A stretch of 52,278 bases of DNA from assembly GCA_028822815.1 (NCBI GenBank), contig JAPKCW010000001.1, forward strand, positions 1-52,278, written 5' to 3'. This stretch comes from Nitrospinaceae bacterium. GTDB taxonomy: Bacteria; Nitrospinota; Nitrospinia; Nitrospinales; VA-1. The notes beneath the pieces were generated by a model that worked only from the letters and a program-made list of their open reading frames with translations, did no database searches and was not told the DNA's origin. Both the position numbers and the translations under genes were made by a program. Positions 8,718-52,229 of this stretch are shown piece by piece (positions within the stretch are counted from its first letter, which is position 1; each line of letters begins with the position of its first letter).

Positions 8718-9539
8718 ATGAAAAATATTTTTAATACCCTGACGGGTTTGATGATGGTTCTTTTTTTCTCGTCATGCGCCCTGCAAAAAAAAACTTTTGA
8801 AAATATGGCCTTCATTCCCGAAGGATCATTCACCATGGGTTTTAAAATAGAGAATGATAACGAATGGGGAGATATGGATGAAGACCCGGTTCATGAAGTT
8901 ACCCTCAATGCTTACTGGATGGATAAATATGAGGTGACAAGTTTTGACTTCGCCGAGTTTCTCAATTTCCATCAGGCCTCTGCCGGGCGGTTTATAGAAA
9001 TCACCCCAAGCGTTACGGTTGAGCTGGTGGACGGAAAATATAAACCACGGGTTGGATTGGAGAACCTCCCTGTCAACCGGGTCTCCTGGTATGGTGCCGA
9101 TGCCTATTGCCGATGGAAAAGCAAACGCTTGCCCACGGAAGCTGAATGGGAAAAAGCCGCGCGGGGAACCGACCAGAGAATTTTTCCCTGGGGAAACGAA
9201 TTTCCTGACAACAAGCGTGTGACTTTCCGGCGTAAATTTTCTGACCTGGGTTTCAAAGTAATGGAGCCTGTAAATAGCATGAGCCGGGGTGTTTCTCCTT
9301 ACGGCATCCATCATATGGCGGGTAATGTCTGGGAATGGGTTGCCGATTGGTTTGACGGTGGAACCTATGAAGACTCTGAACAAAAAAACCCGCAAGGGCC
9401 TGAAACCGGAATCAGCAAGATTCTAAGGGGGGGCAACTGGTATTACAAGGCCTACTATATGAGAACTACCTACCGCTTTAACGAACGGCCCGATCAGTTT
9501 AATATCTGGCAAGGCTTCCGCTGCGCCCGCCGCCACTAG
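8718..9539 (+). CDS. formylglycine-generating-enzyme (FGE/SUMF1) family lipoprotein
   Basis: FGE-family motifs are present: RVSWYGADAYCRWKSKRLPTEAEWEKAARG, GNVWEWVADW, RGG..Y, and GFRCAR at the C-terminus. I prefer ATG 8718 (MKNIF...FFSSCA lipobox) over the TTG at 8700 in the ORF track. The stop TAG lies inside a repeat. Confidence 0.85.
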   Translation: MKNIFNTLTGLMMVLFFSSCALQKKTFENMAFIPEGSFTMGFKIENDNEWGDMDEDPVHEVTLNAYWMDKYEVTSFDFAEFLNFHQASAGRFIEITPSVTVELVDGKYKPRVGLENLPVNRVSWYGADAYCRWKSKRLPTEAEWEKAARGTDQRIFPWGNEFPDNKRVTFRRKFSDLGFKVMEPVNSMSRGVSPYGIHHMAGNVWEWVADWFDGGTYEDSEQKNPQGPETGISKILRGGNWYYKAYYMRTTYRFNERPDQFNIWQGFRCARRH

Positions 9540-9650
9540 GCGTGGGGCCAACTGGCAATGGCGTTATATGGCAAGCAAAGGTATTGGCGCCTTGAGAAGC
9601 TGGGTGGCTAAATGGACCCCTCTTTTTCAAAGAGGGGCTGGGGTGATTTA
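9533..9650 (-). repeat. family-A REP/MITE-like intergenic repeat, reverse orientation, with distal 34-nt hairpin module
   Basis: It starts with CCACTAGGCGTGGGGCC (9533-9549) and ends with CCCCTCTTTTTCAAAGAGGGGCTGGGGTGATTTA (9617-9650). It is related to the copy at 44451-44569. Confidence 0.8.
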
Positions 9651-9689
9651 GAACCTATCGCGCAATATCCGGGCCAGTGGGCTTCCCGG

Positions 9690-10613
9690 TTAGCGGCGGT
9701 TCTTTTTCTTCAGGGCTTTTTTCAAAATCCAGGCAACATTCAACTTGCGGGCGCAATGTTTGAAAATGGTTTCGGTCAAGGGCCGTAGAGAGCAGTGGTC
9801 GGTCAATATCCCGGCTTCACTGCAGTTGACAACCATTAATGGATTCTCCCGTTGGAAATTTGTGAATGCCCAGTCGAACCACTGTTTGGAAACCGCCATG
9901 GATTTTAATGTTCGTAAACTTTGACCGTTGATGTCTGTTTCCAGGACCAACTGGTCTTTCTGTCTATCCATCATGAGCTTCAAGCCTTTGCCTGCGGCAT
10001 CGCTTCCATGGCTGTGGGATTTCTTTTTGGGATAAGAAAGATCCTGGCCGATGAATATAATCGGATTGCCTCCGGCTTGAAAGGCCAGGTCATAAGTTAC
10101 CGATAAAACTGTTCCGCCTGGTGTCAATATGCCAATGTGGGGAACCATTTTTTGAATTTCAACCAAAGTGGGGATATCCGGTGCGAATTTATTGAAAAAA
10201 AGGACATTGTTTTCCCAAAGCTCAAGAACATGGGGATGCACGATAGAAGGAACCACAAGGGTTATTCCTCCCTGCGGAACATTAACGAGAAATCGGGTGA
10301 TTTCTTCTTGAGGATCCAGGCAAACCACAAAGTCCGGAATGATCCCGTTTTCCATCAATGGATTTAATGCGGCATCACAAGAAATAATGACGGCTTTATT
10401 TTGAGCGCGGTGAAGAAAGCGGATATTTTTATCCAGGGATGGCCCGGCACCTACCACAATGCAAGGCAGATCGCGAAATTTGTTTTTAAGGGCAATGACT
10501 CCAGGGTTTTGTTGTATGGCATTAAGGTTTGCTTGGAAATTCCGTTGCCAAACTTGGTCGAAGCGGAGAAGGGTGGCTGATTTTACTTCGCGAATTTGTT
10601 CGTCACGACTCAT
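9690..10613 (-). CDS. DUF115 / Maf-type (motility accessory factor, MptE-like) protein
   Basis: The motif block CIVVGAGPSLDKNI...VIISCDAALNPLMENGIIPDFVVCLDPQ is typical of DUF115. I prefer ATG 10613 (MSRDEQ) because the TTG at 10649 lies almost against the flgE terminator. Confidence 0.6.
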   Translation of the reverse strand: MSRDEQIREVKSATLLRFDQVWQRNFQANLNAIQQNPGVIALKNKFRDLPCIVVGAGPSLDKNIRFLHRAQNKAVIISCDAALNPLMENGIIPDFVVCLDPQEEITRFLVNVPQGGITLVVPSIVHPHVLELWENNVLFFNKFAPDIPTLVEIQKMVPHIGILTPGGTVLSVTYDLAFQAGGNPIIFIGQDLSYPKKKSHSHGSDAAGKGLKLMMDRQKDQLVLETDINGQSLRTLKSMAVSKQWFDWAFTNFQRENPLMVVNCSEAGILTDHCSLRPLTETIFKHCARKLNVAWILKKALKKKNRR

Positions 10614-10660
10614 GAGCCTAATGTAACAAAGTCTGGGTTCTACAGGCAAGTATGCGTCGC

Positions 10661-10692
10661 AAAAAAAAGACCCGGACTAAAAGTCCGGGTCT
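10661..10692 (-). terminator. rho-independent terminator after flgE
   Basis: On the minus strand: AGACCCGGACT-TTT-AGTCCGGGTCT followed by T8. Confidence 0.7.
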
Positions 10693-10718
10693 TGAAGAGA
10701 TCAAATCAATTGTGAATA

Positions 10719-11966: not shown

Positions 11967-11996
11967 GAGTGATCTCCTTTTTCCGTTACGGCTTGA

Positions 11997-19633: not shown

Positions 19634-21558
19634 GACGGCCCTTTCTGCATCTGGGCATGGTCAAGCAATTTTCGGGCGGTTGCGTTTCCAGGTTGCAGTT
19701 TGAGAACCTGCTCCAAGTAGGGAATGGCGTCCGCATAACGATTGTTTTTCAGGTGCAGGGCGGCCAGGTTTTGGTGGATGTCCGGAAGATCCTGTTGAAT
19801 GTCCAAGGCTTTTTTAAATGCAATTTCAGCTCTTTCATAGGCTTTTAAATTCCAGAAAATGATACCAATGTTATTTTGCGCCTGTGGATGCCTAGGTTTA
19901 ATAGCCAGCGTCTGGCGATATTCCTGAAGTGCTTCATCAAAAGATCCTACCTGTCGAAACGCGTTTCCTAAATCAAAGTGATAATCGGCTTTATGTGACC
20001 GCATGCTGACTGCTTTTTGCAAAAACGGAATGGCTTCTCCATAGGCCTTCTGCTTACTCTGGGCAAGGCCCGTAAAATAATAGGTGTCCGGTTTGTTAGA
20101 ACCCAGGGCAATAGCATGACCAAATTCTTCAATGGCTTGTTCCCAGTGTTTTTGCCGGAAATGGATATGGCCCAAGTTTGCATAGGCATCCGACTGGGTA
20201 GGGTTTAACTGCAGGGTAATGGCCAGTTCTGCTTTTGCTTCTTCGAGCATTTTGGTGTCCATATATGCGGTGGCTAGGTTGTTATGAACCAATGACTTGT
20301 TCGGCGATTTTTCTGCCGTGTCTTTCCACAGCGTGACCTCAGATCGGTAATCAAGCGAGCGGTTCACCGTGAGTAAAAAAGTAAGAGATAAAAATGCCAA
20401 CAAAAGGCCAGTTGCCAAAGCTTGAGCCCGACAAGCACTCAGAAACATCCAGCCCAGCGCAAGGCTGAATCCCAACCCGGGCAAATAGGTGCGGTGCTCC
20501 GTGGCAATTTGTTTGAGCGGAATAAAACTGGATGAGGGAAACAATGTGATGAAAAACCAGAGGACGGCAAATATTAAAATAGGAGATTTTTGCCGGGGAA
20601 CTATTATTGCTCCGACTGCTAAAATTCCAATAGCACAAATTAACTGCACGTCGATGAATCCGGATGGCAGGCGTATATCCGGCTCAAAGTTGAGATTAAA
20701 AGGCAGGAACAGCTTAAGCAGGTAATAGTGAACCACTACCTTGATTTGACTGAGAAAATATAAAAAACGGCTTGTCTCCCCGGAGACCGGATCGGCGTTT
20801 AAAGAAAAAATATTGCCCTGCTCTATATATCGATAACAAAGATAAAACAAAAGGGGCAGGAGAATGGCTCCGATTTTTGTCCTTAAAGATTTCCTCTCAT
20901 CGGGTGGAGTGATGAGCCAGATATAGATGATTGCCATTAAGGGAAAGGTGACGACAATTTCCTTGGTTCCAGCTGCGAGAAAAAGAAAACCTGAAATTCC
21001 CGCAATGAAAAGCAATTTGCCTGCCCAAGCCAGGTTTTCTTTGCGGGGGCGGACAAGCCTGCAAAAAATATAAAAGGCAAGCAGATAAAAAAATGTCGCC
21101 AAGCCTGATGAACGGCTTGAAATATAGGTAACCGTTTCCACCGTGAGAGGATTGAGTAAATGAATGGAAGCGCAAATTAGGGGCAACTGCTTGAGTTGAT
21201 TTGCGGCCGGCTCTAAGCGTAATAGTTCGCTGACCAGAAAATACCAGACCACTCCGGTCAGGATATGGATAAGAACATTGGTAAGGTGATACCCGAATAC
21301 ATCCAGCCCACCTATTTCCCGATTCACTGCAAATGTCAGCAAAAGAACGGAACGGTTAAAAATATTGCCGATGCCAACGTTATTTTGAAAATCATTCAAA
21401 TGTTGAATATAAGGATTCTCAACAATGGCATGGGCATCATCGTAAAGAAAAGGCGAATGAAAAGTGGCCCAGAAAGCCAGAAGGCCCATACAGGTGAGAA
21501 TTGTAACGGACTTTAGTTGATACCCGAAGGAACCAATGTCTGTGGTTTTGGAATTCAT
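19630..21558 (-). CDS. TMTC-like multi-pass membrane (GT-C/DUF1736-type) protein with C-terminal TPR domain, paralogue 2
   Basis: 642 aa. The first-loop motif is FLYDDAH. SRSSGLATFFYLLAF and ATEHRTYLPG are present, followed by TPR repeats. ATGA overlaps on both sides. Confidence 0.75.
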   Translation of the reverse strand: MNSKTTDIGSFGYQLKSVTILTCMGLLAFWATFHSPFLYDDAHAIVENPYIQHLNDFQNNVGIGNIFNRSVLLLTFAVNREIGGLDVFGYHLTNVLIHILTGVVWYFLVSELLRLEPAANQLKQLPLICASIHLLNPLTVETVTYISSRSSGLATFFYLLAFYIFCRLVRPRKENLAWAGKLLFIAGISGFLFLAAGTKEIVVTFPLMAIIYIWLITPPDERKSLRTKIGAILLPLLFYLCYRYIEQGNIFSLNADPVSGETSRFLYFLSQIKVVVHYYLLKLFLPFNLNFEPDIRLPSGFIDVQLICAIGILAVGAIIVPRQKSPILIFAVLWFFITLFPSSSFIPLKQIATEHRTYLPGLGFSLALGWMFLSACRAQALATGLLLAFLSLTFLLTVNRSLDYRSEVTLWKDTAEKSPNKSLVHNNLATAYMDTKMLEEAKAELAITLQLNPTQSDAYANLGHIHFRQKHWEQAIEEFGHAIALGSNKPDTYYFTGLAQSKQKAYGEAIPFLQKAVSMRSHKADYHFDLGNAFRQVGSFDEALQEYRQTLAIKPRHPQAQNNIGIIFWNLKAYERAEIAFKKALDIQQDLPDIHQNLAALHLKNNRYADAIPYLEQVLKLQPGNATARKLLDHAQMQKGPS

Positions 21559-23882
21559 GGAGTCGCGTTTTGCGGGCCGGTTAAATTTACCATCATTTTA
21601 TTTATTGCTTCATTTTGAGCCGGACTCAGGTCCATTTTTAAAGCCGTCTGCAAAAGTTCCCGGGCTTTTTTCATCTGACCAAGGTTAGCAAGAGTTTCTG
21701 CCAGAGAGATTTGTGCATTAAAATTATTGGGTTGGAGTGAAAGAGATTTTTCAAGAAAATCCTGTGCATTTTCCCAGTCTGCTTGCCGGTTAAAATTGAA
21801 ACCAATCTGAGCGTAGGCAGAAGGTCTGGGCCCGGTAACTTCAAGGAAGCTTTTAAATTGTTGTGTGGATGTGTCCCATTTTTCCTGCTTTTGATAAACC
21901 TTAGCAAGGTTGAACAGCGCGGGTTCATACCGGCTGTTCAGCTTTAAGCAATGTTTGAAGGCACTTACTGCCAATTCAAATTTGTCAGTCACCATATAAG
22001 CAGTGCCCAGGTTGAAATAAGCGGGCAATAAAGACGGATCTATTTTGAGGGCTGCTTCCCATTCCGTTACTGCGTTTTCAATTTTTCCGGTTTTTCCATA
22101 AAGTTCCCCCAAGTTCAACCGGGCCAAGGCAAAACCGGGGTCGGAATTTGACAAGTTGATTGCCAGTTTCAACGAGGCTATGGCTTGGTCGTACAACCCT
22201 TTTCGGTTATAAACCGAACTCAATCCTATTCTGGATGAAAAATGACCCGGCCTCAATGCCAGAGTTTTCAAGTATTCTTTTTCCGCGTCATCCAGTCGCC
22301 CTTGATCCAGATAAACGCTGGCCAGATTATAATGAGGTTCCACCAGCTCGGCCAGAAGTCCGATAGATTCTGAGGGGGAAAATTTATTGACGGATTTCTG
22401 GCCAGTTATTTTTTCGCGTCGCTTCAAAAATTCTTCAGCACTTTTTATATTGTACTGGGTGTCAATAAAATGGGAAATATTGGCAACGCTTTTTTCCAGG
22501 TGATGAGTCGCGAGGGCAAGATCACCCTTTTCAAAATAGGCTTTGCCAAGATTGTTATGGGATCTTGTTGACTTGGGATTCTTCTGGACGGAGTCTTTCC
22601 ACAAACTAATTTCGCTGATCCAGTCATTATTCCGGGTTGCTGTTCCCAGTGCAAACATGGGTAAAAGCACAAGCAACATTAAACAGCGCCAAGTGCGGGC
22701 GCCCCATCCCACAATCATGCACAGTCCTAATGTCATGGGAAGGTAAGTACGATGTTCCACAGCCAGATCGTTTAGAGGAATGATGCTGGAAGTGGGGGCG
22801 AGCGTAATGAAAAACCAGATGAAGCCAACGGCAACCCAAATATTCCTGCCTCGTGCCACGGTGAAAAAGATGCCGATAATAACCAGTCCCGCTAAAAATA
22901 TGAGCGGGTCGGATGCAGGGGTGCTGAACGGCAGGCCGCTGTCCACGTTCAGGTTGAAGGGAAACAGGAATAGCTTGAGATAATAAAAGACGATTACTTT
23001 TATCTGCACTAAAAAGTAAGGCATTCGTCCATAAAGTTCCAGCCCCTGGTCCTTGGCAATATAAAGCCAGGAATTGGCAACGATGTAGGCTCCCGCAAAA
23101 AAAACACCCAGGAAAAGACCCCATTTGAGCTGGAAAATTTTTTCAGCGAATTGCGGTTTCTGTGTTGAAACTATAAAGCCCAGATACCAAATTCCCATCA
23201 GAACAGGCAAGGTCGCACCAATGAGTTTTGAGGCAATGCTCATATATGCGCTTATCAGGATTGCTATGAAAAGCACCCATCTAAGGTTAAATTTAGGAAT
23301 TTTGTTTTTACGCGAAAACAGGCCGGTGAACAGGTAAAGCGCCAGTAAGTAAAAAAAGGTTACTAGTAATGAAGAACGGGAGGATATGTAAGATACCGAG
23401 TCGGTGTTCAAAGGGTGCAATGCAAAAAGCAAAGCTGTTGCCAAAGGAAACCCGCTAGCCGCGGCCGGGCCACGCCCGGTGGAAACAGGCTCCACGCCTT
23501 CGGCGGTCGCATTAGAGTTTTTACCAAGTTGTCTCTGGCGGCTCGCCGTCAGGTATTGGGTCCGCGAGATAAGAAAAAAAATCAATAGTGTGACACCAAT
23601 ATGAACGGTGAGATTAAATAAATGGAAGCCAAAAACCCGATTTTTTCCAAGCGTGTTATTTAATGCGTAGGTCCAGAGAACAACGGGACGGTTTTCAAAT
23701 GAGGAGAAACGAACCTGGCGATCGAATGCGTCCAGGTCTTCCACCCAATGACTTTGGATGAGTGGCAAATCATCAAACTGAAACGCGCCTTTCAGGGAAT
23801 TAAAATATACCGCGGTATTTGCCAGGATTAAAAGAAGCACACATCCTATAATTTTTTTAATTTCTGGCGGGGTGAGTATCAT
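21555..23882 (-). CDS. TMTC-like multi-pass membrane (GT-C/DUF1736-type) protein with long C-terminal TPR domain, paralogue 1
   Basis: 775 aa. The first-loop motif is FQFDDLP. SRSSLLVTFFYLLAL and AVEHRTYLPM are present. The TPR domain spans about 330 aa. Confidence 0.75.
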   Translation of the reverse strand: MILTPPEIKKIIGCVLLLILANTAVYFNSLKGAFQFDDLPLIQSHWVEDLDAFDRQVRFSSFENRPVVLWTYALNNTLGKNRVFGFHLFNLTVHIGVTLLIFFLISRTQYLTASRQRQLGKNSNATAEGVEPVSTGRGPAAASGFPLATALLFALHPLNTDSVSYISSRSSLLVTFFYLLALYLFTGLFSRKNKIPKFNLRWVLFIAILISAYMSIASKLIGATLPVLMGIWYLGFIVSTQKPQFAEKIFQLKWGLFLGVFFAGAYIVANSWLYIAKDQGLELYGRMPYFLVQIKVIVFYYLKLFLFPFNLNVDSGLPFSTPASDPLIFLAGLVIIGIFFTVARGRNIWVAVGFIWFFITLAPTSSIIPLNDLAVEHRTYLPMTLGLCMIVGWGARTWRCLMLLVLLPMFALGTATRNNDWISEISLWKDSVQKNPKSTRSHNNLGKAYFEKGDLALATHHLEKSVANISHFIDTQYNIKSAEEFLKRREKITGQKSVNKFSPSESIGLLAELVEPHYNLASVYLDQGRLDDAEKEYLKTLALRPGHFSSRIGLSSVYNRKGLYDQAIASLKLAINLSNSDPGFALARLNLGELYGKTGKIENAVTEWEAALKIDPSLLPAYFNLGTAYMVTDKFELAVSAFKHCLKLNSRYEPALFNLAKVYQKQEKWDTSTQQFKSFLEVTGPRPSAYAQIGFNFNRQADWENAQDFLEKSLSLQPNNFNAQISLAETLANLGQMKKARELLQTALKMDLSPAQNEAINKMMVNLTGPQNATP

Positions 23883-25686: not shown

Positions 25687-25793
25687 CCACTAGCCGTGGA
25701 GGCAACTGGGCAAAGGCTCCTCAAGCCGCCAAAGCTCTTTGCTGGCCAAATAAAGTTATTGCTATCTGGCCCTACGCCAAGTAGGCCTAGTGG
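25687..25793 (+). repeat. family-A REP/MITE-like repeat, complete unit with both inverted ends
   Basis: Left end CCACTAGCCGTGGAGGC (25687-25703) and right end GGCCCTACGCCAAGTAGGCCTAGTGG (25768-25793). It ends 10 nt before the folD ATG. Confidence 0.75.
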
Positions 25794-28822: not shown

Positions 28823-29602
28823 AAAAATCCGCCTGGACCAGTTGCTGGTAAAAAAAAACTCGTCTCCACCCGGGAAAAAGCCAGAAGCATTATTCTCTCG
28901 GGAAAAGTAAGAGTGCAGGATACCGTTGCCGATAAACCCGGTCGACTGGTTCCTGTAGATTGTCTTCCCGTTATTATTGGTGCGCCCCAACCCTTTGCCA
29001 GCAGGGGCGGATTGAAGCTGGACCACGCCTTAAAACAATTCCATGTTTTGCCTTTAGGAAAAACTGCTATAGATGTGGGAGCTTCGACCGGTGGTTTTAC
29101 GGATTGTCTTTTACAAAACGGCGCTGAAAAAGTGTACGCGGTGGATGTCGGCTACGGGCAGTTGGACTGGAAACTCCGGAGCGACTCGCGGGTCATTTGC
29201 CTGGACCGGAAAAACGCCCGAACATTATGCAAAGAGGATGTTGGGGAAATGCTGGACCTGGCCGTGGTCGATGTATCGTTCATCTCGCTTAAGCTTGTCA
29301 TACCCCCTTTACTGGAAATCCTCAAGCCGGAGGGGGAATTGGTTACCCTGATCAAACCCCAGTTTGAAGTTGGAAAAGAGGAGGTGGAAAACCGTGGCAT
29401 TATTAAAGACCCGGCTAAACATATTCGGGTACTGCTTGAGTTGAACCGTTTTATTGCAGAAAAAGGCTGGGCAGTAAAAGCTGTGACCGAATCTCCCATC
29501 ACCGGTCAAAAAGGTAATCGGGAATTCCTGGCTCACTGTGTTCATGGCCGATTTGCAGATCCAATAGATGAAGAAACCCTCCGCCAACTAGTCCTGGCCT
29601 GA
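28806..29602 (+). CDS. tlyA: TlyA-family rRNA 2'-O-methyltransferase (S4 + FtsJ-like domains), frameshifted as sequenced
   Basis: The S4 N-terminus (MTQKIEKIRLDQLLVKK, ATG 28806 behind GAGGA) is out of frame with the rest (KLVSTREKARSIILSGKVRVQD...DVGASTGGFTDCLLQNGAEKVYAVDVGYGQL). The break is in the A9 run 28850-28858. Confidence 0.8.
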
Positions 29603-29721
29603 TTGCGCCTACCGGTGAGCCCATTCCCGTGGGAGGGAATATAGCAATCACTTTTTCTGGCGAGCAAAGAGTCGTCTCGGCTCAAAAAGCTATTGCTCAT
29701 TACCACCGGGCGTTGCCCGGG

Positions 29722-30084
29722 TTACAACTCGTCTTTATAGACGATAAAACAATCTGCCGGGTAGACCAAATGTGTGTCTCCCCACTGGCTGGAAGACCCG
29801 GTGTCCCATTGTGTTTCGTCTTCGAGGGGTTTCATGCGTACCCCACCTGATCCGCCATAAATGAGCAGGGCAACTCCATCTCCGGATTCTTCCACTTTGC
29901 AGGCATAAGCGGGGCACGATGTATTGGAGTCCGCGTCCCAACCCGTGATCTGAACCGGTTGTTCCTCACCGTTTACCGGGTATTTGATGCAATACAATTC
30001 CCGGGGCAGACTGATATCCCGAAAAATCATATTGAAGCTCCGGTCAGTATTGGTATTGGAATCGACTTCGACAAACACGAGCAT
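29722..30084 (-). CDS. hypothetical 120-aa protein (no recognisable family)
   Basis: This is the only sizeable ORF in a 620-nt gap. The composition is protein-like (acidic, beta-rich, 4 Cys). GGAGA lies just upstream; a GTG two codons in has better spacing. No motif recognised. Confidence 0.4.
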   Translation of the reverse strand: MLVFVEVDSNTNTDRSFNMIFRDISLPRELYCIKYPVNGEEQPVQITGWDADSNTSCPAYACKVEESGDGVALLIYGGSGGVRMKPLEDETQWDTGSSSQWGDTHLVYPADCFIVYKDEL

Positions 30085-31263: not shown

Positions 31264-31623
31264 AATCGCTTGTTTCTCCCCGAAAATAGCAACTGGTATA
31301 AACAGAAAGCTCAAAAAAATCTAAGCTTTTACCGACAGGTTCATGGTGTTCGAATTTGTGATTAATGATAAAATAGTTCATAACAGCCTAAAAATCAATT
31401 ACTTAACTTAAAAAAATAAATTTTCCCCACAGGCCCGATTTTAAACAACTCCCCAATTTGGGGGGGGATAAAATAGATTCCCCAAAACCCAAGAGTAATT
31501 GTAATTGTTTAAATTAAAATGTTTTTGTTGAATCTATTTTGGTGCGGGTAAAAATTTCCCCTTCTGCTTTCCATTTATGGGATATTGCGGTCGAATTTAA
31601 GGGCGTCTCCAAAAATTGTTTTT

Positions 31624-31747
31624 GGCCACCGGCGAACCGTCGGAGGCAACTGGCAGAAACTCTTTCAGACGAGATGAGTTGTTGCTAACCAGACAGGGCT
31701 ATTGCTCATTGGCCCCACGCCTAGTGGTTGCCATAGAGAAAATTACC
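31624..31747 (+). repeat. family-A REP/MITE-like repeat, forward orientation
   Basis: ...CCGTCGGAGGCAACTGG...GGCCCCACGCCTAGTGG (31711-31727) plus the tail GTTGCCATAGAGAAAATTACC, which is shared with the copy at 37210-37246. Confidence 0.8.
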
Positions 31748-31807
31748 AAATAACACAGAGATCCTTTGAATTTATCTTTAAGGATTGATCAGCCGGGAGT
31801 CTGAAAA

Positions 31808-32557
31808 ATGTATAAGTTGGTCCTTTTAAGACATGGCCAGAGCCAATGGAATTTGGAAAACCGGTTTACCGGTTGGACCGATGTTGACCTGACTGAACAG
31901 GGAAAACAGGAAGCCGAGACGGCTGGAAAACTTTTTCTGGAAGAAGGCTATACCTTCGATTTGGCCTACACCTCTGTCCTCAAGCGGGCAATTCGAACTT
32001 TGTGGATTGTGCTGGATAAAATGGATTTAATGTGGATTCCAGTCACCCGGTCCTGGAAGCTGAACGAACGCCACTATGGTGCTCTGCAAGGATTGAACAA
32101 AGCGGAAACGGCTAAGAAACACGGCGCAGAGCAGGTGAAAATCTGGCGCAGAAGTTATGCCACTCCCCCTCCCCCGCTTTCTGAAGATGACGAAAGGTTG
32201 CCTGCAAAAGATGCCCGCTATGCTGGCATACCAAAAAACCAATTGCCTGCCGCAGAAGCTTTAAAGCATACGGTCGACCGATTTTTACCCTACTGGTTTG
32301 ATCAGATTGTGCCTTCCATCAAAGCCGGAAAAAAAGTTTTGATTTGCGCGCATGGCAACAGCTTAAGAGCTCTGGTCATGCACCTGGACAACATCAGCGA
32401 AGACGATATTCTGGAATTGAATATTCCTACCGGCATTCCGTTGGTCTATGAATTAGACGCGGACTTGAAACCCATCAAACATTATTATCTGGGCGACCCC
32501 GAAGCCGCCAAAAAAGCCGCCGAAGCCGTCGCCAACCAATCCACTAGCCGCCACTAG
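31808..32557 (+). CDS. gpmA: 2,3-bisphosphoglycerate-dependent phosphoglycerate mutase
   Basis: Family motifs: [58 protein letters not shown] lies upstream of the ATG. Confidence 0.93.
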
Positions 32558-32567
32558 GCGTGAGGCC
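32541..32567. repeat. family-A repeat end, tandem CCACTAG copies in the gpmA/recN overlap
   Basis: CCACTAGCCG-CCACTAGGCGTGAGGCC. It supplies the stop codons of both convergent genes. Confidence 0.75.
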
Positions 32568-37086: not shown

Positions 37087-37094
37087 GCACCTTA

Positions 37095-37246
37095 GTACCC
37101 CTCCGGGGCATGAAAGTTAATGAAGAGGTCATCACGCAGGGGAGGCAACTAGCAAGGACTTGTTTGAGCCGAGAACATCGTTGCTAGCCAGATAAAGTCA
37201 TTGCCAGTCGGCTCCACGCCTAGTGGTTGCCGTAAAGAAAATTATC
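37095..37246 (+). repeat. composite repeat: module B + family-A unit filling the whole rimO-pfk spacer
   Basis: In order: GTACCCCTCCGGGGCATGAAAGTTAATGAAGAGG (37095-37128), ATCACGCAGG, then ...GGAGGCAACTAGC...GGCTCCACGCCTAGTGG (37210-26), then the tail TTGCCGTAAAGAAAATTATC. Confidence 0.8.
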
Positions 37247-37264
37247 GAATATATGGAGATGCCC

Positions 37265-38375
37265 ATGAGCCTTAAGCGTGTTGGAATTCTGACTGGGGGG
37301 GGATTGCTCCGGCCTCAATGCGGTGATCCGGGCGGTCACCCGGTCGGCGATTATCAGCTACGGGGCAGAAGTCATAGGTGTTGAGGAGGGGTTCGAGGGC
37401 CTGATCTTTAACCGGCACAGAAAACTCACTGTGGCTGGAACCCGGGACATACTGCCTTTGGGAGGAACCGTTCTTGGTACCACCAATAAAGGCGACCCTT
37501 TTGAATACCGTCAGTTCAGCAAGGACGGCCAGCTGACGACTCAGGATTATTCTCAACAATCGGTCGAAAATTTCAAACGTCTTGACCTGGACTGCCTGTT
37601 TGTGGTGGGTGGGGATGGGACTCTGCAACTGGGTTACAAGTTTTTTGAAAGAGGCTTGCCAGTGATCGGCATCCCCAAAACAATCGATAACGATCTGGTG
37701 GGCACGGACTATACCTTCGGTTACCAGACCGCTGTGCAGGTGGCTTGTGATGCGCTGGACCGACTGCAAACGACTGGAGAGAGCCACCATCGGGTCATGA
37801 TTCTAGAGGTTATGGGTCGGGACACAGGTTGGATCGCCCTGGAAGCCGGAATTTCCGGGGGAGCCCATGTCATCCTTATTCCGGAAATCCCTTATGATCT
37901 GGAAGAAGTGCTGGAAAAAATCCACTTGCGGCAAGAGGGTGGAAGCCCTTTCAGCATCATGGTGGTCGCAGAGGGTGCCAAAGAGATGGGTAAGGAAGCG
38001 ATCACCAGTGAAGCGGCATCTACCCGTTTGCAGGGAGTGGCTCAATTGGGCGGGGTAGGTAATTTTATAGCGAAACAATTGAGCGACCGAATCGATCTTG
38101 AAGTGCGTTGCACGGTTCTGGGGCATACTCAACGAGGTGGCACCCCCTTGTCATTCGACCGGGTTCTCGGTACCCGGCTGGGAATCCAGGCGGTGAAAGC
38201 TGCCGCAGAAGGGAAATTTGGCCATATGGTGGCGTTGCAAGCCCGCGATATTGTTTTGGTTCCACTTAAAAGCCTGGCGGGAATCGTTCGCCAGGTTCCA
38301 TCCGATTCGCAATTGATCCATACAGCCGAATCCATCGGCATCAGCTTGGGCCGCCGTACGCTGGCAGACTCCTAG
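37265..38375 (+). CDS. pfk: 6-phosphofructokinase (PfkA/Pfp family), frameshifted as sequenced
   Basis: MSLKRVGILTGG (ATG 37265, with GGAG 6 nt upstream) is out of frame with the main ORF. That ORF reads DCSGLNAVIRAV...GGDGTL...IPKTIDNDL...MGRDTGWIAL. The break is in the G8 run 37295-37302, inside the conserved TGGGD motif. Confidence 0.85.
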
Positions 38376-38552
38376 TGGTGGTTGTCACATCGCGTTGAAT
38401 ATGTTAATCTGAGCCACAACTTAGTTTCCCTTTATCGGGAACTTCCCAAAAAAATTACGCACGTTTCCGGATCAAGCCAAGGGTGGCCTACGGGTTCTTG
38501 GTGCGAGATGATGGAGGCGAAGGTACAACCCATTAACTTTTAAGGAGTTTGC

Positions 38553-39479
38553 ATGTCTGAAATCACAATGAAACAACTACTGGAGTCCGGGGTCCATTTC
38601 GGGCATCAGACCAATCGCTGGGACCCCAAGATGAAACCCTATATTTATGGGGCGCGAAGCGGGATATATATTATTGACCTGCAGAAAACACTGGTTCGTT
38701 TTCAGGAAGCTGAAAAAGTTGTCCGGGACATGGCTCGGGCAGGTAAGAAGATCCTTTTTGTGGCGACCAAAAAACAGGCGCAAGAGTTGATTGCCGAAGA
38801 AGCCACTCGTTGCGGAATGTACTACATCAACCAAAGATGGTTGGGTGGAACATTGACAAACTTTACCACCATTCGCAAAAGCATTGCCCGGTTGCACGAG
38901 TTGGAGAAGATGGATGAAGAAAATCAGTTTGATCTCTTACATAAAAAAGAAGCTTTGAGAATGAGAAGAGAAATTGACAAGCTGAATAAATTTTTCAGGG
39001 GTATCAAAAACATGAAGGATTTGCCGGATGCCCTGTTCATCGTTGATACCCGTAAAGAAAAAATAGCGCTGGCTGAGGGTAAAAAACTGGGGATTAAAAT
39101 TATAGCCATGGTCGATACCAACTCCAATCCGGATGACGTGGATTATCCCATCCCGGCAAATGATGACGCGATGCGTTCCATCAAACTGTTTGCCAGCCGG
39201 CTTGCGGATATTTGCCTGGAAGGGCAGGAAATGAACAGGATCATCCAAGAAAAAGAAAACGCTAAAAAAGAAGAAGCCAAAAAAGCCGAAGCTAAAAAAG
39301 CTGAAGCTAAAAAAGAAGAAGCCAAAAAAGCCGAAGCTAAAAAAGCCGAAGCTAAAAAAGCCGAAGCTAAAAAAGCCGAAGCTAAAAAAGCCGAGGCCAA
39401 AGAAAGCACAAAGGAAAAACCCGCACCGGCTGATTTGCCGGAATCAACACCGGTCGCCAGTGACAACGGGAAAAGCTAA
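38553..39479 (+). CDS. rpsB: 30S ribosomal protein S2 with repetitive Lys/Ala/Glu C-terminal extension
   Basis: [22 protein letters not shown]...[10 protein letters not shown] are canonical S2 motifs. The last ~80 aa are AKK(A/E)E repeats plus a Pro/Ser tail. Confidence 0.95.
39261..39404 (+). repeat. in-frame 15-nt tandem repeat (about 9.5 units of GCYAAAAAAGMMGAA) inside rpsB
   Basis: Nine consecutive pentapeptides [10 protein letters not shown], read directly from the sequence. Confidence 0.9.
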
Positions 39480-43299: not shown

Positions 43300-44457
43300 A
43301 TGAAAAAAATATCCCTTTTGGGCTCAACGGGTTCTATCGGTGTCAACACTCTGGATGTTATAGAGCGTTATCCGGAAAGTTTTCAGGTTTGCGCCCTGTC
43401 TGCCGGAAGCAATGTAGACTTGTTTGCCCGCCAGATTCGAAAATTCAAACCCGCGCTGGCGGCCCTGTTTGACTCGACGAAAATAGATGCGTTGAAAGAG
43501 CTTGTTGGCGATTTGGATGTGGAAATCGTTTCTGGTCAGGAAGGCACGGTTTCTGCCGCTTCTTTTTCTGAAGCCGACCTGGTTGTTTCCGGAGTGGTTG
43601 GAAGTGCCGGATTGCTCCCTGCCCTTTCGGCCCTCAAAGCTGGTAAAAACCTTGCACTCGCCAATAAGGAAACGCTTGTCATAGCAGGGGAACTGGTTCT
43701 TAAAGAAGCGGAACGTACTCATACCCGCATCATCCCTATTGACAGCGAACACAGCGCAATTTTCCAGGTATTAAACGGGGAAAAACCTGAGCGTATCAAG
43801 AAAATTATCCTGACTGCGTCCGGCGGACCTTTCAGAACTTTTACCCTCAAGCAGATGGAGAACGTGACGGTAAAAGAAGCACTCAATCACCCCAACTGGA
43901 GCATGGGAGCTAAAATCACCATCGACTCTTCCACCATGATGAACAAGGGCCTTGAGTATATAGAGGCTAAATGGTTGTTCGGGGTGGATACGAAGGTCGA
44001 GATCATCGTTCACGCGCAGAGTATCATTCATTCGATGATCGAGTTTGTCGACACTTCCATCATCGCGCAGTTGGGGATTCCGGATATGCGGGTTCCCATT
44101 GCTTACGCGCTGACTTATCCGGACCGGTTTGAAAGTGAACTGCCTTCTTTAGACCTGGCCTCTATGGGAAATCTGACTTTTGAGGCCCCGGACTTTGAAA
44201 GATTTCCCTGCCTGAAATTGGCCATGGATGCTATGGAAATGGGCCAGACTATGCCGGCGGTACTCAATGCCGCTAATGAAATTGCGGTGCAGGCGTTCCT
44301 CGATGAACTGATCCCCTATAAAGATATCGCAGAGATCATTCGCATGGTTATGCAAAATCACAGCCCGGTTTCCCTGCATGAATTGCAAAATGTTCTGGAT
44401 GCCGACCACTGGGCCCGTGAAGAAGCCACTAAACTCATTACCGTCACCCACCACTAG
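43300..44457 (+). CDS. dxr: 1-deoxy-D-xylulose-5-phosphate reductoisomerase
   Basis: KKISLLGSTGSIG.NTLDVI, LANKE.LV, PIDSEHSAIFQ, LTASGGPFR, HPNWSMG.KITIDS.TMMNKGLE motifs. The stop TAG lies inside a repeat end. Confidence 0.95.
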   Translation: MKKISLLGSTGSIGVNTLDVIERYPESFQVCALSAGSNVDLFARQIRKFKPALAALFDSTKIDALKELVGDLDVEIVSGQEGTVSAASFSEADLVVSGVVGSAGLLPALSALKAGKNLALANKETLVIAGELVLKEAERTHTRIIPIDSEHSAIFQVLNGEKPERIKKIILTASGGPFRTFTLKQMENVTVKEALNHPNWSMGAKITIDSSTMMNKGLEYIEAKWLFGVDTKVEIIVHAQSIIHSMIEFVDTSIIAQLGIPDMRVPIAYALTYPDRFESELPSLDLASMGNLTFEAPDFERFPCLKLAMDAMEMGQTMPAVLNAANEIAVQAFLDELIPYKDIAEIIRMVMQNHSPVSLHELQNVLDADHWAREEATKLITVTHH

Positions 44458-44569
44458 CCCGGGCCAAGCGGCCGGCGGCGATTAGCAATGACTTAAACTG
44501 GTAAACATAAAGTTCTCTCGGCCTAAGGAGCTTTTCTCCCTCTTTTTAAAGAGGGGCTGGGGTGATTTA
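44451..44569 (-). repeat. family-A REP/MITE-like repeat, reverse orientation, with distal 33-nt hairpin module
   Basis: It starts with CCACTAGCCCGGGCC at the dxr stop and ends with TCCCTCTTTTTAAAGAGGGGCTGGGGTGATTTA (44537-44569). That end is near-identical to 9617-9650. Confidence 0.75.
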
Positions 44570-44602
44570 CATTATGGGGTTGTTTAATATTTTTCTCTCG
44601 CA

Positions 44603-45094
44603 ATGAATTTACCTGATATTCGTATTGGCAATGGTTACGATGTGCACCGTCTGGTTGAGGGCAGAAAACTCATCCTGGGTGGAGTCGATGTTCCGCATTC
44701 GATGGGACTGGACGGGCACTCTGATGCCGATGTTCTGGTGCATGCTTTATGCGATGCCCTGCTTGGCGCATTGGGCGCTGGAGATATCGGTAAGTATTTC
44801 CCGGACACCGATCCGAAGTGGAAGGGCGTCTCCAGCCTGCACCTGCTCAAAGAAGTCGTGCGCATGTGCAAAGGTTTTAAACTTGCTAATGCCGACTCGG
44901 TGATCGTTGCACAACAACCCAAGCTGGCCCCCTATATTTCGCAAATGAAAAAGAATATTGCTTTGGCGATGGATGTCGAACCAGACCGGATTAATATCAA
45001 GGCCACCACAACAGAAAAGCTCGGTTTTGCCGGGCGGGAAGAAGGCATCTCTGCGTATGCGGTGGCCTTATTGGTAAAAAATGACAGACCCTGA
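44603..45094 (+). CDS. ispF: 2-C-methyl-D-erythritol 2,4-cyclodiphosphate synthase
   Basis: [31 protein letters not shown] and DIG..FPD motifs. Confidence 0.93.
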
Positions 45095-46334
45095 TCAACG
45101 CATCGTAATCACAGGGATAGGCTTGACTTCCCCCAATGGCAACAACCTGCAGGAGTTTCGTCAAAACCTGTTAAACGGGGTTTCGGGAGTGCAACACTTC
45201 GAGACCCGGTATATGGGAAAGGTCCTCGCGGGGGTCTGTGATTTTGATGAACTGAAATACCAGAAAAAAAAGGAACGCCGCCGTGGCACCCGGGCCGGGT
45301 CCGTTGCCATCTACTGCTCGCGCGAAGCTTTTGCCAATGCCGAAATTGACTTGGAAGCGATTGACCGCTCCAGGGTAGGCGTCTATCTGGGGGTGACCGA
45401 GCATGGCAATGTCGAGACCGAGAACGAGGTCTACAACATCAGCCAGTATGATTATGATGTTAAGTTCTGGTCGCACCATCATAATCCTCGTACGGTTTCC
45501 AACAACCCTGCGGGAGAAGTGACCTTGAACATGAAAATCACCGGGCCGCATTACACCATCGGCGCGGCCTGCGCGGCAGGAAATCTGGGAGTTATCCAAG
45601 GTCTGCAGATGTTGCGGCTGGGTGAGGTCGATCTCGCTTTGGCGGGAGGGGTGTCCGAGAGTATTCATACCTTCGGTATATTTGCCAGCTTTAAAAGCGA
45701 AGGCGCCCTGGCCACGCATGAAGACCCCGCTAAAGCCAGCCGGCCCTTTGATAAAAACCGTAACGGAATTGTTTGCTCAGAAGGAGGGTGCGTCTATACC
45801 CTGGAACGGCTTACTGACGCTAAAAAGCGCGGGGCGAAAATTTACGGAGAGATCGTGGGGTATTCCATGAACTCTGATGCGATTGATTTTATTCTGCCCG
45901 ACCCGGGCAGGCAGGCCCAGTGCATACGTCTGGCGCTGGAGAGGGCCGGACTCGAGCCGGGCGACATCGATATCCTCAACGCGCACGCAACGGCAACGCA
46001 AATGGGAGACATCCAGGAAGCCAAGGCCCTGCGCGAAGTGTTCGGCGATAACTGCAAAGTGCGGATCAATAATACAAAAAGTTTCATCGGTCATACCATG
46101 GGTGCGGCAGGCACGCTGGAACTTTCCGGCAACCTGCCAGCATTCGATGACCTCATAGTCCACCCCACTATCAACCTGGACGATCTCGATCCGGAATGCG
46201 CCTTGAATAACCTCGTGGCTAACAAACCGGAAAAAATTCCCTCCGTAGATTACATCATGAACAATTCCTTCGGCATGTTCGGCATTAACTCTGTCCTGAT
46301 AGTCCGCAGTCCCTCTGCTGGGAACTTGCAATAG
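45081..46334 (+). CDS. beta-ketoacyl-ACP synthase (FabF/FabB-like elongating KAS)
   Basis: Active-site contexts are TIGAACAAG (Cys), NAHATAT (His) and IGHTMGAAG (His). The start overlaps the ispF stop by 14 nt. Confidence 0.88.
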
Positions 46335-46385
46335 CTTTTTACTGCGCCCAATTGGTCTTTAAGCTTTATGGACCATGGCAATTTG

Positions 46386-46499
46386 CCAGCGGAGGCTCTC
46401 CGCCCACTCCTGTGGGGGAAATCAGCAAGCACTTCTCAAGCCGACGGGGCCTCCTGATCGCCAGAGAAAGTTTTTGCCCGCTGGCCCCACGCCTAGTGG
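46386..46499 (+). repeat. family-A REP/MITE-like repeat, forward orientation, between KAS and ACP
   Basis: CCAGCGGAGGC...GGCCCCACGCCTAGTGG (46483-46499). It ends 68 nt before the ACP ATG. Confidence 0.75.
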
Positions 46500-46831: not shown

Positions 46832-46937
46832 GTTTTATACCCCCTCCCTTTTTTGACCCCAAAACAGATTCAGTTAAGTCGATATACCTTTTGCTCGCAA
46901 GGTAGAGTTATTGCTTACTGGGTCCAGCGAGTTATAT

Positions 46938-46985
46938 CTTCTTCATTAAATTTCATGCCCCGCATGGGGTATCACGCTGGCGCAG
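46938..46985 (-). repeat. module-B repeat, inverted copy, followed by ATCACGCTGGCGCAG
   Basis: CTTCTTCATTAAATTTCATGCCCCGCATGGGGT is the reverse complement of the module at 37095-37128 and 52177-52211. Confidence 0.65.
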
Positions 46986-48386: not shown

Positions 48387-48420
48387 CAGGCCCATCAAAA
48401 AATTCATCGTTTGAGAATCA

Positions 48421-49869: not shown

Positions 49870-49910
49870 AGTCAAATGGCCTCTTTTCGCTTTCCTGAAA
49901 CTCAATAACT

Positions 49911-50654
49911 ATGAAATTCGATTTTACCGGGCAAACGGCTCTGGTCACAGGTGGTACGCGTGGCATAGGCCGGGCCATCTCAGAGGCGTTCCTCAAAGCC
50001 GGAGCAAAAGTCATCGCTACTTATCTGGGTAATGATGGGGAAGCGGAGAACTTTAAACACGCCAATGCCGACCACGCAGACTTTCTCGACATTCATAAGT
50101 TCGATGTTTCCGATTATGTAGCGGTTGAAAAGTTTTATAAAGAAATCGAAACGAAATACGAAAACTTCCAGATCCTTGTTGTCAGTTCAGGCATTCGTTC
50201 CGATTCCATTGTTGGCATGATGAAGGCAGAGGACTGGAACCGGGTCATCAACACCAACCTGACAGGAACTTTCAATTTGTGCAAGCTGGCAGTACAGTCC
50301 ATGATGCGCCAGAGATATGGAAGGATCATCACTTTAACCTCTCCCATTGGCAAGTTCGGGTTTGCGGGCCAAGCCAATTACGCCGCGTCAAAAGCGGGTC
50401 AGGTGGCATTCACACGATCCCTCTCCAAGGAAGTAGCGAGCCGTAAGATAACCGTTAATTGTGTTTCGCCAGGTTTCATCGATACCGATTTCATTGGCGA
50501 TCTGCCGGAAGAACAGAAAAAATTCTATAAAGACCAGATTCCCCTGAAACGCTTTGGAACCCCGGAGGATGTAACCTGCCCGGTGCTGTTTCTTGCGTCA
50601 AAAGAATCTTCTTACATCACAGGTTCGGTGTTAGAGGTAACCGGGGGACTATAG
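49911..50654 (+). CDS. fabG: 3-oxoacyl-ACP reductase (FabG-like SDR)
   Basis: ALVTGGTRGIGRAI (TGxxxGIG) and the catalytic NYAASKAG (YxxxK). 247 aa. Confidence 0.85.
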   Translation: MKFDFTGQTALVTGGTRGIGRAISEAFLKAGAKVIATYLGNDGEAENFKHANADHADFLDIHKFDVSDYVAVEKFYKEIETKYENFQILVVSSGIRSDSIVGMMKAEDWNRVINTNLTGTFNLCKLAVQSMMRQRYGRIITLTSPIGKFGFAGQANYAASKAGQVAFTRSLSKEVASRKITVNCVSPGFIDTDFIGDLPEEQKKFYKDQIPLKRFGTPEDVTCPVLFLASKESSYITGSVLEVTGGL

Positions 50655-50655
50655 G

Positions 50656-51081
50656 ATGTCACAGGACTTTCTTCAATACATTCCCCATCGTCCGCCTTTT
50701 CTGTTTATCGACCGGGTGCTTGAAGAAAGCGACGATACTATCAAGGCGGAAAAAAAGATCGATCCGAAAGAACCGTTTTTTGAGGGGCATTTTCCTGGAA
50801 GACCGATCATGCCGGGAGTGTTGATCTTTGAATCCATTTTTCAGGCCGGCGCAATCATGATGGGGAAACGTATGGCCAACGAAGGCAAGATCCCGGTTCT
50901 CACCCGTGTCAATAACATTAAACTCAAGCATGCTGTTCATCCGGGAGATACGATGCAGATTGAGGTGAAGCTCAAAGATTTGGTCAGTACCGCCGCATAC
51001 ATGACGGGCAAGGCCACCGTCAACGGTAAAACTGCAGTCACCCTGGAGTTCTCCGCCATGCTGGTTGAGGAGACAAAATAG
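50656..51081 (+). CDS. 3-hydroxyacyl-ACP dehydratase (FabZ-like hot-dog fold)
   Basis: IPHRPPFLFIDRV and FFEGHFPGRPIMPGVLIFESIFQAG. 141 aa. The start is 1 nt after the fabG stop. Confidence 0.85.
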   Translation: MSQDFLQYIPHRPPFLFIDRVLEESDDTIKAEKKIDPKEPFFEGHFPGRPIMPGVLIFESIFQAGAIMMGKRMANEGKIPVLTRVNNIKLKHAVHPGDTMQIEVKLKDLVSTAAYMTGKATVNGKTAVTLEFSAMLVEETK

Positions 51082-51120
51082 CGGAGAATGAGCACGTTAT
51101 ACTTTTCATTAGCCTTTGTG

Positions 51121-51298
51121 CCTCGAAGGAGATCTTTGCATGATCTGGTATTTTCATTACATACGCTCTTCAGCATAACAAATCAAATCTCACAAGATCG
51201 TCATCGCGAGCCGCAAAGCGGCGTGGCGATCCAGAGTTTTTCTGGATTGCTTCACTTTGTTCGCAATGACGATTTATGCAAAGGTCTCCTCTCGAAGG
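51121..51298. mobile_element. MITE-like non-autonomous element: imperfect ~21-23-nt terminal inverted repeats around an internal ~73-nt palindrome
   Basis: The left TIR is CCTCGAAGGAGATCTTTGCAT (51121-41). The right TIR is ATGCAAAGGTCTCCTCTCGAAGG (51276-98). The internal palindrome CGTCATCGCGAGCC...GTTCGCAATGACG spans 51199-51271. There is no coding capacity. Confidence 0.55.
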
Positions 51299-51326
51299 GG
51301 TAACGGCTTTATAAGGTGAACAAAAA

Positions 51327-52133
51327 ATGAGTTTTCTCGATCTTGAAAACAAAAGCTTCTTAGTGACCGGAGTAGCAAACAGGAAAAGTGTTGCCTGGCA
51401 TATTGCGAAAGTGCTGGAAGAAGAGGGTGCGAAGGTTATATATAGTGTCCGCTCCGAAGATCGTAAAAAGTCACTGGAAAAGCTTCTAGCAGGTAGGCCG
51501 GTCTTCGTCTGTGATGTGGAGAAACAGGAAGATATTGAACGTTTAAAGATCCAGGTGGCGCAACACAGTAAGGTCCTGCACGGACTCGTCCACTCCATAG
51601 CTTTTGCAAATTATTCTCAGGGCTTGAAACCCTTTCATGAAACGCCGAAAAAGGATTTTCTTCAGTCCGTCGATATCAGTTGTTATTCCCTGATCAGTCT
51701 CGCCAACGTTTTTAAGGACTTCTTCGATCAACAGGCCTCTGTTGTTACAGTATCGATCTCCACTACACGGATGGCGGCGGAAAATTACGGATACATGGCT
51801 CCGGCGAAGGCAGCGCTCGATTCCACTCTCTGTTTCCTGGCAAAATCGTTCAGCGCATTTTCACAAGTCCGGTTCAACTCCATCAATCCAGGCCTGCTCA
51901 AGACATCGGCCTCGGCGGGCATACCCGGCTATATCGATTCCTACCTGCATGCCGAAAAGGCAACATTGAGGAAAAAAGGTCTGACCACTCAGGAGGCGGC
52001 CAATGCAGCGGTATTTTTGTTGAGCAAACGCGCAAGTGGCATCAATGCCCAGGGTTTGGTTCTTGATGCCGGAATGTCCATCAACTATTTTGATCAGGAA
52101 TTGACCACTAGGCGTGGGGCCAACGAACAATAG
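51327..52133 (+). CDS. fabI: enoyl-ACP reductase (FabI-like SDR) with repeat-encoded C-terminal tail
   Basis: [22 protein letters not shown] (FabI-type N-terminus), the YMAPAKAAL catalytic Y-x6-K, and [10 protein letters not shown]. The last ~9 codons are read from the repeat at 52105. Confidence 0.85.
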
Positions 52134-52229
52134 CTTTGTTTGGCTGGCAACGATGCTCTCGGTTTGAAGAGTTCTTGTACCCTTCCAAGGGCATGAAGGC
52201 AAATGAAAAGGACATCACGCTGGCGGCGG
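52105..52229 (-). repeat. family-A REP/MITE-like repeat (reverse) followed by module B
   Basis: CCACTAGGCGTGGGGCC (52105-21). The interior is alignable to the reverse complement of 37160-37226. Then come GTACCCTTCCAAGGGCATGAAGGCAAATGAAAAGG (52177-211) and ATCACGCTGGCGGCGG. Confidence 0.75.

Follow-up and report, generated by a model that had tools for sequence, protein, structure and literature searches.

The 52,278-nt stretch of DNA analyzed in this work (hereafter, the window), i.e., contig JAPKCW010000001.1 (C308) of the Nitrospinaceae assembly GCA_028822815.1 (G000; 2.25 Mb, 369 contigs, 47% G+C), harbors a repeated sequence whose most recognizable part is the 17-mer GGCCCCACGCCTAGTGG or its complement (hereafter, the core). 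Our analysis suggests that these copies probably belong to a mosaic family, specific to one genus of Nitrospina-type bacteria and resembling repetitive extragenic palindromic (REP) sequences and bacterial interspersed mosaic elements (BIMEs), whose CTAG-tagged units of about 107 nt sit at gene boundaries without a REP-associated tyrosine transposase (RAYT). At its CTAG-bearing end, a unit overlaps or directly adjoins the stop codon of the preceding gene; this end often serves as the stop itself, which adds one His codon to the coding sequence. A preliminary description of the window, made from the sequence alone, had proposed a modular repeat family akin to REPs, BIMEs, and miniature inverted-repeat transposable elements (MITEs), and this proposal is supported by the data reported below.

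Abundance, architecture, and placement of the repeat units

Allowing up to three mismatches, the window contains 8 cores, where 0.06 would be expected and where none of 100 shuffled sequences reached the same number; all the core sites previously listed are present, including the weak ones (44451, 38371, and the tandem pair at 32541). At this threshold the whole assembly carries 178 cores, 61 of which are perfect, and no 11-mers are more frequent in the genome than words of the core. The copy number, which had been anticipated to be very high, is moderate instead, since the 178 cores are accompanied by 270 unit termini and the repeat islands, all module types summed, cover about 1.4% of the genome. 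The taxonomic range is narrow. Exact matches among 185,579 species genomes fall nearly all in metagenome-assembled genomes labelled Nitrospina, Nitrospinaceae, or Nitrospinota; the core was found in 21 of the 22 relatives of the same genus (2 to 247 copies each, at no more than one mismatch) and in none of the 18 genomes that represent other genera within the family or order, in agreement with the suggested lineage specificity. Within this single genus the copy number spans 0 to 247, and many species favor the core variant ...GCCGAGTGG. No Rfam family matched the units, the sole match in the window being a tRNA-Leu, and a literature search retrieved no paper linking Nitrospina with REP or MITE repeats. 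The core is also borne by a contig labelled Candidatus Neomarinimicrobiota (L021, PAWC01000016), which is 87-93% identical to contigs C50 and C151 of G000 and is probably a Nitrospina contig misplaced in the wrong bin.

The units are palindromic and non-coding (CCACTAGGCG...CGCCTAGTGG) and carry a terminal hairpin, of which the 17-mer is the commonest allele; the invariant piece of the unit is the terminal 10-mer (CCACTAGGCG / CGCCTAGTGG; the 270 termini given above are its copies in G000 at no more than one mismatch). Both ends are preserved in 14 units of G000, with a modal length of 107-109 nt; all 14 show the order CCACTAG...CTAGTGG, the reverse (tail-to-tail) order never being observed, and none is accompanied by a target-site duplication, the flanks sharing no direct repeat outside CCAC...GTGG. 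Inward of each end lies an arm (GGCA..T.GCAAT / ATTGC.A..TGCC), followed by an asymmetric body (...GAGCCGAGA..TTTGCTCGCCAGAAAAAG...) that is found in both orientations relative to the core. The two ends, together with the GCAAT/ATTGC arms, constitute terminal inverted repeats (TIRs) of the kind that delimits MITEs.

As previously proposed, the canonical core is itself a mini-hairpin, CCAC-TAGGC-GTGG. This is only one of the hairpins that may occupy the same position, the alternatives including CCGGCG-AGC-CGCCGG, CCCTC-TAGC-GAGGG, CCCCT-TAGC-AGGGG, GCGGAG-AGC-CTCCGC, CCAGCG-TGA-CGCTGG, and others. A perfect hairpin of at least 5 bp was detected just outside the arm anchor in 52 of 97 cases, compared with 19 of 485 shuffled controls, and the 30 distinct stems share a constant loop, (T)AGC or AAC, which indicates that the pairing of the terminal hairpin is maintained by compensatory change. 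Additional modules, such as the body GTATTGCGCTTGAG...GCAATGCAGTGC and a palindrome of about 55 nt (GCGTGATACCCC..GGGGCATGAAGG..ATATCACGC), are joined to the core as in a mosaic; with at least three body types, more than six hairpin types, and bodies in both orientations, this organization is BIME-like. The alignment of unit interiors between copies, which the preliminary description had noticed, was recovered as well (families D2, D3, and D5). Conservation is much higher in the termini than in the interiors: the 90-nt interiors of G000 have a nearest-neighbor identity of 73% (median) and 88% at most, and the identity between orthologues at two diverged sites is 94-100% in the core versus 67-80% in the interior. 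The long exact words common to different interiors (median 20 nt) show no excess over the expectation for copies 73% alike, so that a recent shuffling of modules is without proof.

As for the placement of the cores relative to open reading frames (ORFs), 133 of 154 (86%) are intergenic, in a genome with 12% of non-coding sequence; of the others, 19 are at the margins of ORFs and 2 deeper inside. The expected intergenic enrichment therefore holds genome-wide. The density per kb of spacer is 1.08 in convergent, 0.68 in tandem, and 0.35 in divergent spacers. The cores show no preferred orientation relative to transcription (41 to 37), and their position depends on the orientation: the median distance from the upstream stop is 0 nt for reverse cores and about 105 nt, that is, one unit length, for forward ones, which implies that the unit starts at the stop codon in both orientations. 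Distances to the next start codon are broad. The stop-codon placement first noticed in the window emerged as a sharp peak of upstream-stop offsets among the 85 cores near which an ORF of at least 100 codons ends. In 21 of them (offset +4) the stop is the TAG within CCACTAG and the protein ends with ...X-His; in 14 (offset -3) the stop directly abuts CCAC; and 26 further stops are located within 9 nt upstream of CCAC (offsets -4 to -9 and -2). Long ORFs that enter a unit end stop on the TAG of the element in 22 of 35 cases, against about one third expected. The other hairpin ends exhibit the same peak at -3, usually with CTAA or CTAG preceding, and abutting stops are preceded by a C in 23 of 35 cases, versus 30% for all genes. 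An excess of plus over minus cores in divergent spacers (17 to 3) was taken as chance or artefact, contig orientation being arbitrary.

The preliminary description had stated that in the window reverse copies begin exactly at a stop codon and that forward copies end 10-80 nt before the next start. The former statement is correct for three of the five reverse copies (stop TAG at 9537, 32555, and 44455), but not at 52105, where the FabI frame enters the unit by 28 nt, nor at 25687, where the upstream stop is 42 nt away; the latter is correct for folD (10 nt), gpmA (80 nt), pfk (38 nt, the true ATG being at 37265), and the ACP gene (68 nt).

Gain, loss, and replacement at orthologous sites

The comparison of orthologous spacers revealed that the units are either missing or different in closely related genomes, and this is in agreement with the idea that the family has rewritten gene 3' ends and operon spacers (rimO-pfk, pfk-rpsB, dxr-ispF, and KAS-ACP). 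The synteny rimO-pfk-rpsB is conserved in the 16 genomes of the genus that possess pfk (15 relatives plus G000); in 14 of them the rimO stop overlaps the pfk start (..CCCATGAGCC..) and the site is empty, whereas in the window a 176-nt composite is inserted exactly at the overlap, with ATGAGC on both sides, and the translational coupling of the two genes is broken. A different insertion of 300 nt, having only the right arm in common with the one in the window, occupies this site in G008. Between pfk and rpsB, G022 harbors a unit of about 190 nt, of which the window retains only CCTAGTGG plus the same right flank; the pfk stop is TGA in G005 and lies on element sequence in G000 and G022. At the dxr stop, lastly, G005, G022, and the window each carry a different unit, that of G005 in the opposite orientation.

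The same picture is drawn by 107 loci from relatives compared with G000, which disclosed, at orthologous positions, 50 indels of 40 nt or more. Among them are clean empty sites whose joint falls 0-3 nt from a stop, at L104/C267, L105/C136, L107/C241, L003/C332, L040/C194, and L026/C229; overall, the joint is within 3 nt of the stop of the empty allele in 7 of about 9 clean insertion events, and no duplication accompanies the clean events L104, L105, L107, and L026. Among the eight G000 cores with flanks at least 91% identical in a relative, only one is shared. As these spacers are either empty or filled with different units, units must be gained, lost, or replaced between species.

The suggestion that the family was recently active is thus upheld only in part. 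Turnover between species is fast, but no two interiors of G000 are more than 88% identical, which, together with the absence of target duplications, means that a recent burst is not shown. The collapse of near-identical copies during assembly is an unlikely reason for this, since termini are not enriched at contig ends (22 observed, 17.7 expected), and the interiors are not hypermutable, given that the closest relative carries the unit at 46393-46499 at its orthologous site with 100% identity. These patterns suggest that old, diverged alleles may be exchanged or replaced while the termini remain under constraint.

Family members and neighboring features in the window

The members of the family detected in the window are reported in Table 1. 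Those at 29603-29722, 9611-9650, 44538-44571, and 46857-46983 had escaped the preliminary description, as had the flanking MITE arms (31601-31628, 31728-31764, and 37227-37264). Five genes of the window end on element sequence, i.e., dxr, the ORF 8700-9539, gpmA, the convergent gene at 32544, and pfk.

Table 1. Repeat units, modules, and remnants located in the window.
Feature	Position	Strand	Remarks
Unit with canonical core (9533-9549) at its outer end	9533-9610	-	Stop of ORF 8700-9539 supplied by TAG 9537-9539
Accessory hairpin module CCCCTCTTTTTCAAAGAGGGG+CTGGGGTGATTTA	9611-9650		Repeated at 44538-44571 and elsewhere in the genome
Complete 107-nt unit, both termini, CCACTAGCCG...GGCCTAGTGG	25687-25793	+	Ends 10 nt before folD ATG (25804)
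Core-less unit, terminal hairpins CCCATTCCCGTGGG and CCGGGCGTTGCCCGG	29603-29722	-	Spans tlyA stop (29600-29602) to stop of convergent gene (29722)
IS5-derived MITE with core unit nested in its center	31601-31764	+	End matches IS5-B
Parts of the MITE	31601-31628; 31629-31727; 31728-31764	+	Left arm (GGGCGTCTCCAAAAA...); nested unit (hairpin CCGGCGAACCGTCGG, core 31711-31727); right arm
Solo core with duplicated CCACTAG end	32541-32567	-	Stops of both convergent genes: gpmA TAG 32555-32557, minus-strand gene CTA 32544-32546
176-nt composite insertion between rimO and pfk	37089-37264	+	ATGAGC duplicated on both sides
Parts of the composite	37096-37137; 37138-37226; 37227-37264	+	Palindromic module; core unit; MITE right arm
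Remnant CCTAGTGG	38371-38378	+	TAG is the pfk stop; full-length unit (~190 nt) at the same site in G022
Unit with degenerate core CCACTAGCCCGGGCC (44451-44465) plus accessory module	44451-44571	-	dxr stop supplied by TAG 44455-44457
Unit with two outer hairpins, GCGGAGGCTCTCCGC and CCCACTCCTGTGGG	46383-46499	+	Core 46483-46499
Half body plus inverted palindromic module GTGATACCCC...GGGGCATGAA...	46857-46983		Insertion relative to the closest relative
Unit with canonical core at FabI 3' end, then palindromic module and CCGGCG-type hairpin	52105-52238	-	

Some neighboring sequences deserve mention. The last eight or so residues of KAS (45081-46334), encoded at 46300-46334, are unlike those of FabF models and of the G022 orthologue (L130/L131), which ends with ...VKRYH* on a CCACTAG end; the KAS tail in the window seems to have been replaced. 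In the first TMTC-like gene (minus-strand ORF 21555-23882), the repeat-like fragments GGCTCCACGCC and CCGGGCCACGCCCGGTGG and a CTAG occur in frame at 23452-23503, at the place of a loop insertion of about 17-24 aa that the two paralogues lack, and may represent an intragenic repeat insertion. The pfk frame is broken in a run of eight G (37289-37304), where orthologues read ACTGGAGGGGGAGATTGC and the window, with two bases fewer, reads ACTGGGGGGGGATTGC; this might be either an assembly error or a real frameshift. At 37250-37264, the MITE arm preceding pfk reads TATGGAGATGCCC where other copies have AATAGAGATrCCC, and the A-to-G change makes a GGAG 6 nt before the pfk ATG (37265), which could work as a putative ribosome-binding site for this gene. 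Lastly, a 15-nt tandem repeat at 39235-39429 encodes an (A/E)EAKK array within the C-terminal extension of ribosomal protein S2; its match to the NCBIfam "sunset domain variant" model falls short of the curated cut-off.

Origin of the units and significance of the family

A remaining issue concerns the way in which the units spread and accumulate at stop codons. We infer that they are non-autonomous, and that they might be copied or exchanged in trans by an enzyme reading DNA hairpins and encoded outside G000, rather than by classical DDE cut-and-paste, while old insertion alleles might be spread by homologous recombination between strains. The TAG carried by the units would make the stop codon the one harmless site in a compact genome, so that copies would persist there, and CTAG, the rarest palindromic tetranucleotide of G000 (1665 observed vs 8708 expected), may also be a preferred joint. 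By analogy with REPs, the hairpins might protect mRNA 3' ends in either orientation.

A number of observations weigh against this interpretation. No mobilizing enzyme of the RAYT, IS4/IS5, or IS630 types was found in G000, and no pair of interiors in this genome is at least 90% identical, so that copy-and-paste within the genome is not directly shown. Whole-unit folds are weakly more stable than those of shuffled sequences (z from +0.4 to -3.4), and for this reason we make no claim of a conserved long hairpin. Duplications of 6-8 nt do exist at two composites (ATGAGC at rimO-pfk and GGAAGA at L040/C194), a hint that DDE events were involved in some composites. In addition, the gene calls used to place the cores derive from a longest-ORF heuristic (88% coding).

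It is also conceivable, albeit doubtful in our opinion, that a RAYT-independent and duplication-free machinery actively joins units at stop codons or at CTAG, the TAG of the unit representing a "safe-site" strategy beyond mere survivorship. This idea is suggested by the proportion of clean joints within 3 nt of a stop (7 of about 9) and by the presence at the dxr stop of different units, in differing orientation, in three lineages.

Among the alternative explanations, a classical REPIN/REP system moved by a RAYT (a Y1 HUH transposase) that was lost from, or left unassembled in, most genomes would account for the tetranucleotide tag, the covarying hairpin, the inverted doublets, the absence of target duplication, and the donation of TAG (PMC3733652). 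A RAYT-like Y1_Tnp protein of 326 aa (range 325-333 aa) is indeed encoded by 7 of the 23 genomes of the genus. Nevertheless, the PF01797 (Y1_Tnp) profile has no match in G000 or in the closed, single-contig genomes G005, G006, and G013, although G006 and G013 carry 87 and 54 cores, respectively. Genomes with the gene average 57 cores and those without it 54, the gene being unrelated to copy number. With 55 bits, the protein stays below the 80-bit cut-off of NF047646 (REP-associated tyrosine transposase); it has a DnaA-like C-terminus, no core flanks its loci, an orthologue exists in another family (G027), and the tag is CTAG rather than GTAG. On these grounds the RAYT-driven mobilization mentioned in the preliminary description is not supported, and we consider this explanation unlikely.

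Alternatively, the units might be ordinary MITEs of an unsampled DDE insertion sequence (IS), e.g., of IS5/IS1182 type aiming at the TA of CTAG or YTAR, CCACTAG...CTAGTGG then being TIR plus target. The TIR-like ends, the C preceding most abutting stops (which gives CTAA or CTAG), and the rarity of CTAG would fit such an origin, as would the two IS5-family elements that have MITE derivatives in the genus and in the window. The first, IS5-A, is present in 7 copies in G013 (TIR GAGACCTTTGCATAAG, 8-nt duplication TCTCATGA), and its 178-nt MITE lies at 51121-51298 of the window, with ends GAGATCTTTGCAT...ATGCAAAGGTCTC matching the IS5-A TIR (L138), at a site that is empty in G022. The second, IS5-B (G018:C369 and G011:C24), whose transposase scores 291 bits against the cut-off of 140 for NF033581, has an end, ...TTTTTAGAGGTGCCC, equal to the MITE arm, and is the parent of a MITE of about 100 nt with its basic form at C327:886-987. 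The right arm of this MITE forms the tails behind the cores (31728-31764 and 37227-37264); together with the left arm at 31601-31628, these outer arms are the sequences that belong to the IS5-family MITE. A MITE flank (..GCAA) adjoins 14 termini genome-wide, and this, with the nesting of core units inside the MITE, indicates that some units have spread as passengers. No consistent target duplication could be defined for the outer MITE from its 5 copies. One IS5-A copy (L138, G013:C1 around 2289463) is inserted inside the hairpin module CCCCTCTCATGAGGGG, and the rimO-pfk nest is also at a CATGAG site; IS5-A may prefer (T)CATGA.

Neither IS5-A nor IS5-B can be the parent of the core units, as their ends do not match, and no IS bounded by CCACTAGGCG turned up among 17 transposase loci examined in the genus. 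IS630 (DDE_3) was also discarded as the driver, being present in only 2 of 23 genomes, and DDE_Tnp_1 occurs in 12 of 23 but is absent from G000. Moreover, the 14 complete units show no duplication outside CCAC...GTGG, the unsplit target CCACTAGTGG is found once in the genome, and the events L104, L105, L107, and L026 are clean, so that we regard a DDE origin of the core units as quite improbable. Finally, known DNA-uptake signals reach densities far above the 0.08 cores per kb measured here. The idea of immobile, host-selected sites (for protein binding, an mRNA 3' hairpin, or DNA uptake) kept alike by selection or gene conversion would explain why the core is better conserved than the interior and why near-identical copies are missing, but this density, the 107-nt unit in which the core is embedded, the presence/absence and replacement at orthologous sites of close relatives, and the 0-247 copies within one genus make it highly implausible, in keeping with the low rank already assigned to an uptake signal.

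The reading of the family as a REP/BIME-like one finds parallels in the literature. Donation of a TAG stop has already been described for GTAG REPs, and no dedicated transposase goes with CGTC REPs (Di Nocera et al. 2013, PMC3733652), so that the behavior of the Nitrospina repeats is of a known kind. With the GTAG REP/REPIN-RAYT systems (PMC3733652; Bertels and Rainey 2011, PMC3116915) they share short palindromes outside genes that end in a tetranucleotide tag, hairpins whose stems vary, inverted doublets, the lack of target duplication, and a location at gene 3' ends with TAG-providing termini; they differ in the tag itself, (CCA)CTAG/CTAR, with CTAA/CTAG before the other hairpins, in the unit of about 107 nt with a long mosaic interior, and in the absence of a cognate RAYT or REPtron from G000 and its closed relatives. 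The CGTC-tagged REPs (PMC3733652) are likewise an abundant palindromic family with no dedicated transposase identified, but their tag and sequence differ and they are often intragenic, as in Rickettsia. Like the BIMEs of E. coli, the Nitrospina elements are mosaics of hairpin modules in alternating orientation, restricted to spacers; their sequences are unrelated to these, however, their modules include true IS5-derived MITE arms, and their units sit directly on stops. IS-derived MITEs, such as the Correia elements of Neisseria, are similarly units of 100-150 nt bounded by TIRs, which lie at gene boundaries and modify the ends and the expression signals of genes, and the outer MITE at 31601-31764, with its IS5-family parent, is of this kind, whereas the core units have neither a target duplication nor a parent IS in the 17 loci. 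The family stands apart by its CTAG tag, by mosaic units of 107 nt, by the lack of a RAYT, and by units nested in IS5 MITEs.

Among marine nitrite oxidizers, Nitrospina-type bacteria are the principal group, and most of what is known of them comes from metagenome bins. In these organisms the repeat family alters the last codons and the stops of about 1% of the genes, and its units break operon coupling, as between rimO and pfk, which confuses annotation; at the same time, they are usable as strain-level markers. A well-conserved, REP-like family that lacks a RAYT and is nested in IS5 MITEs represents a test case for the spread of repeats and for their placement at stop codons.

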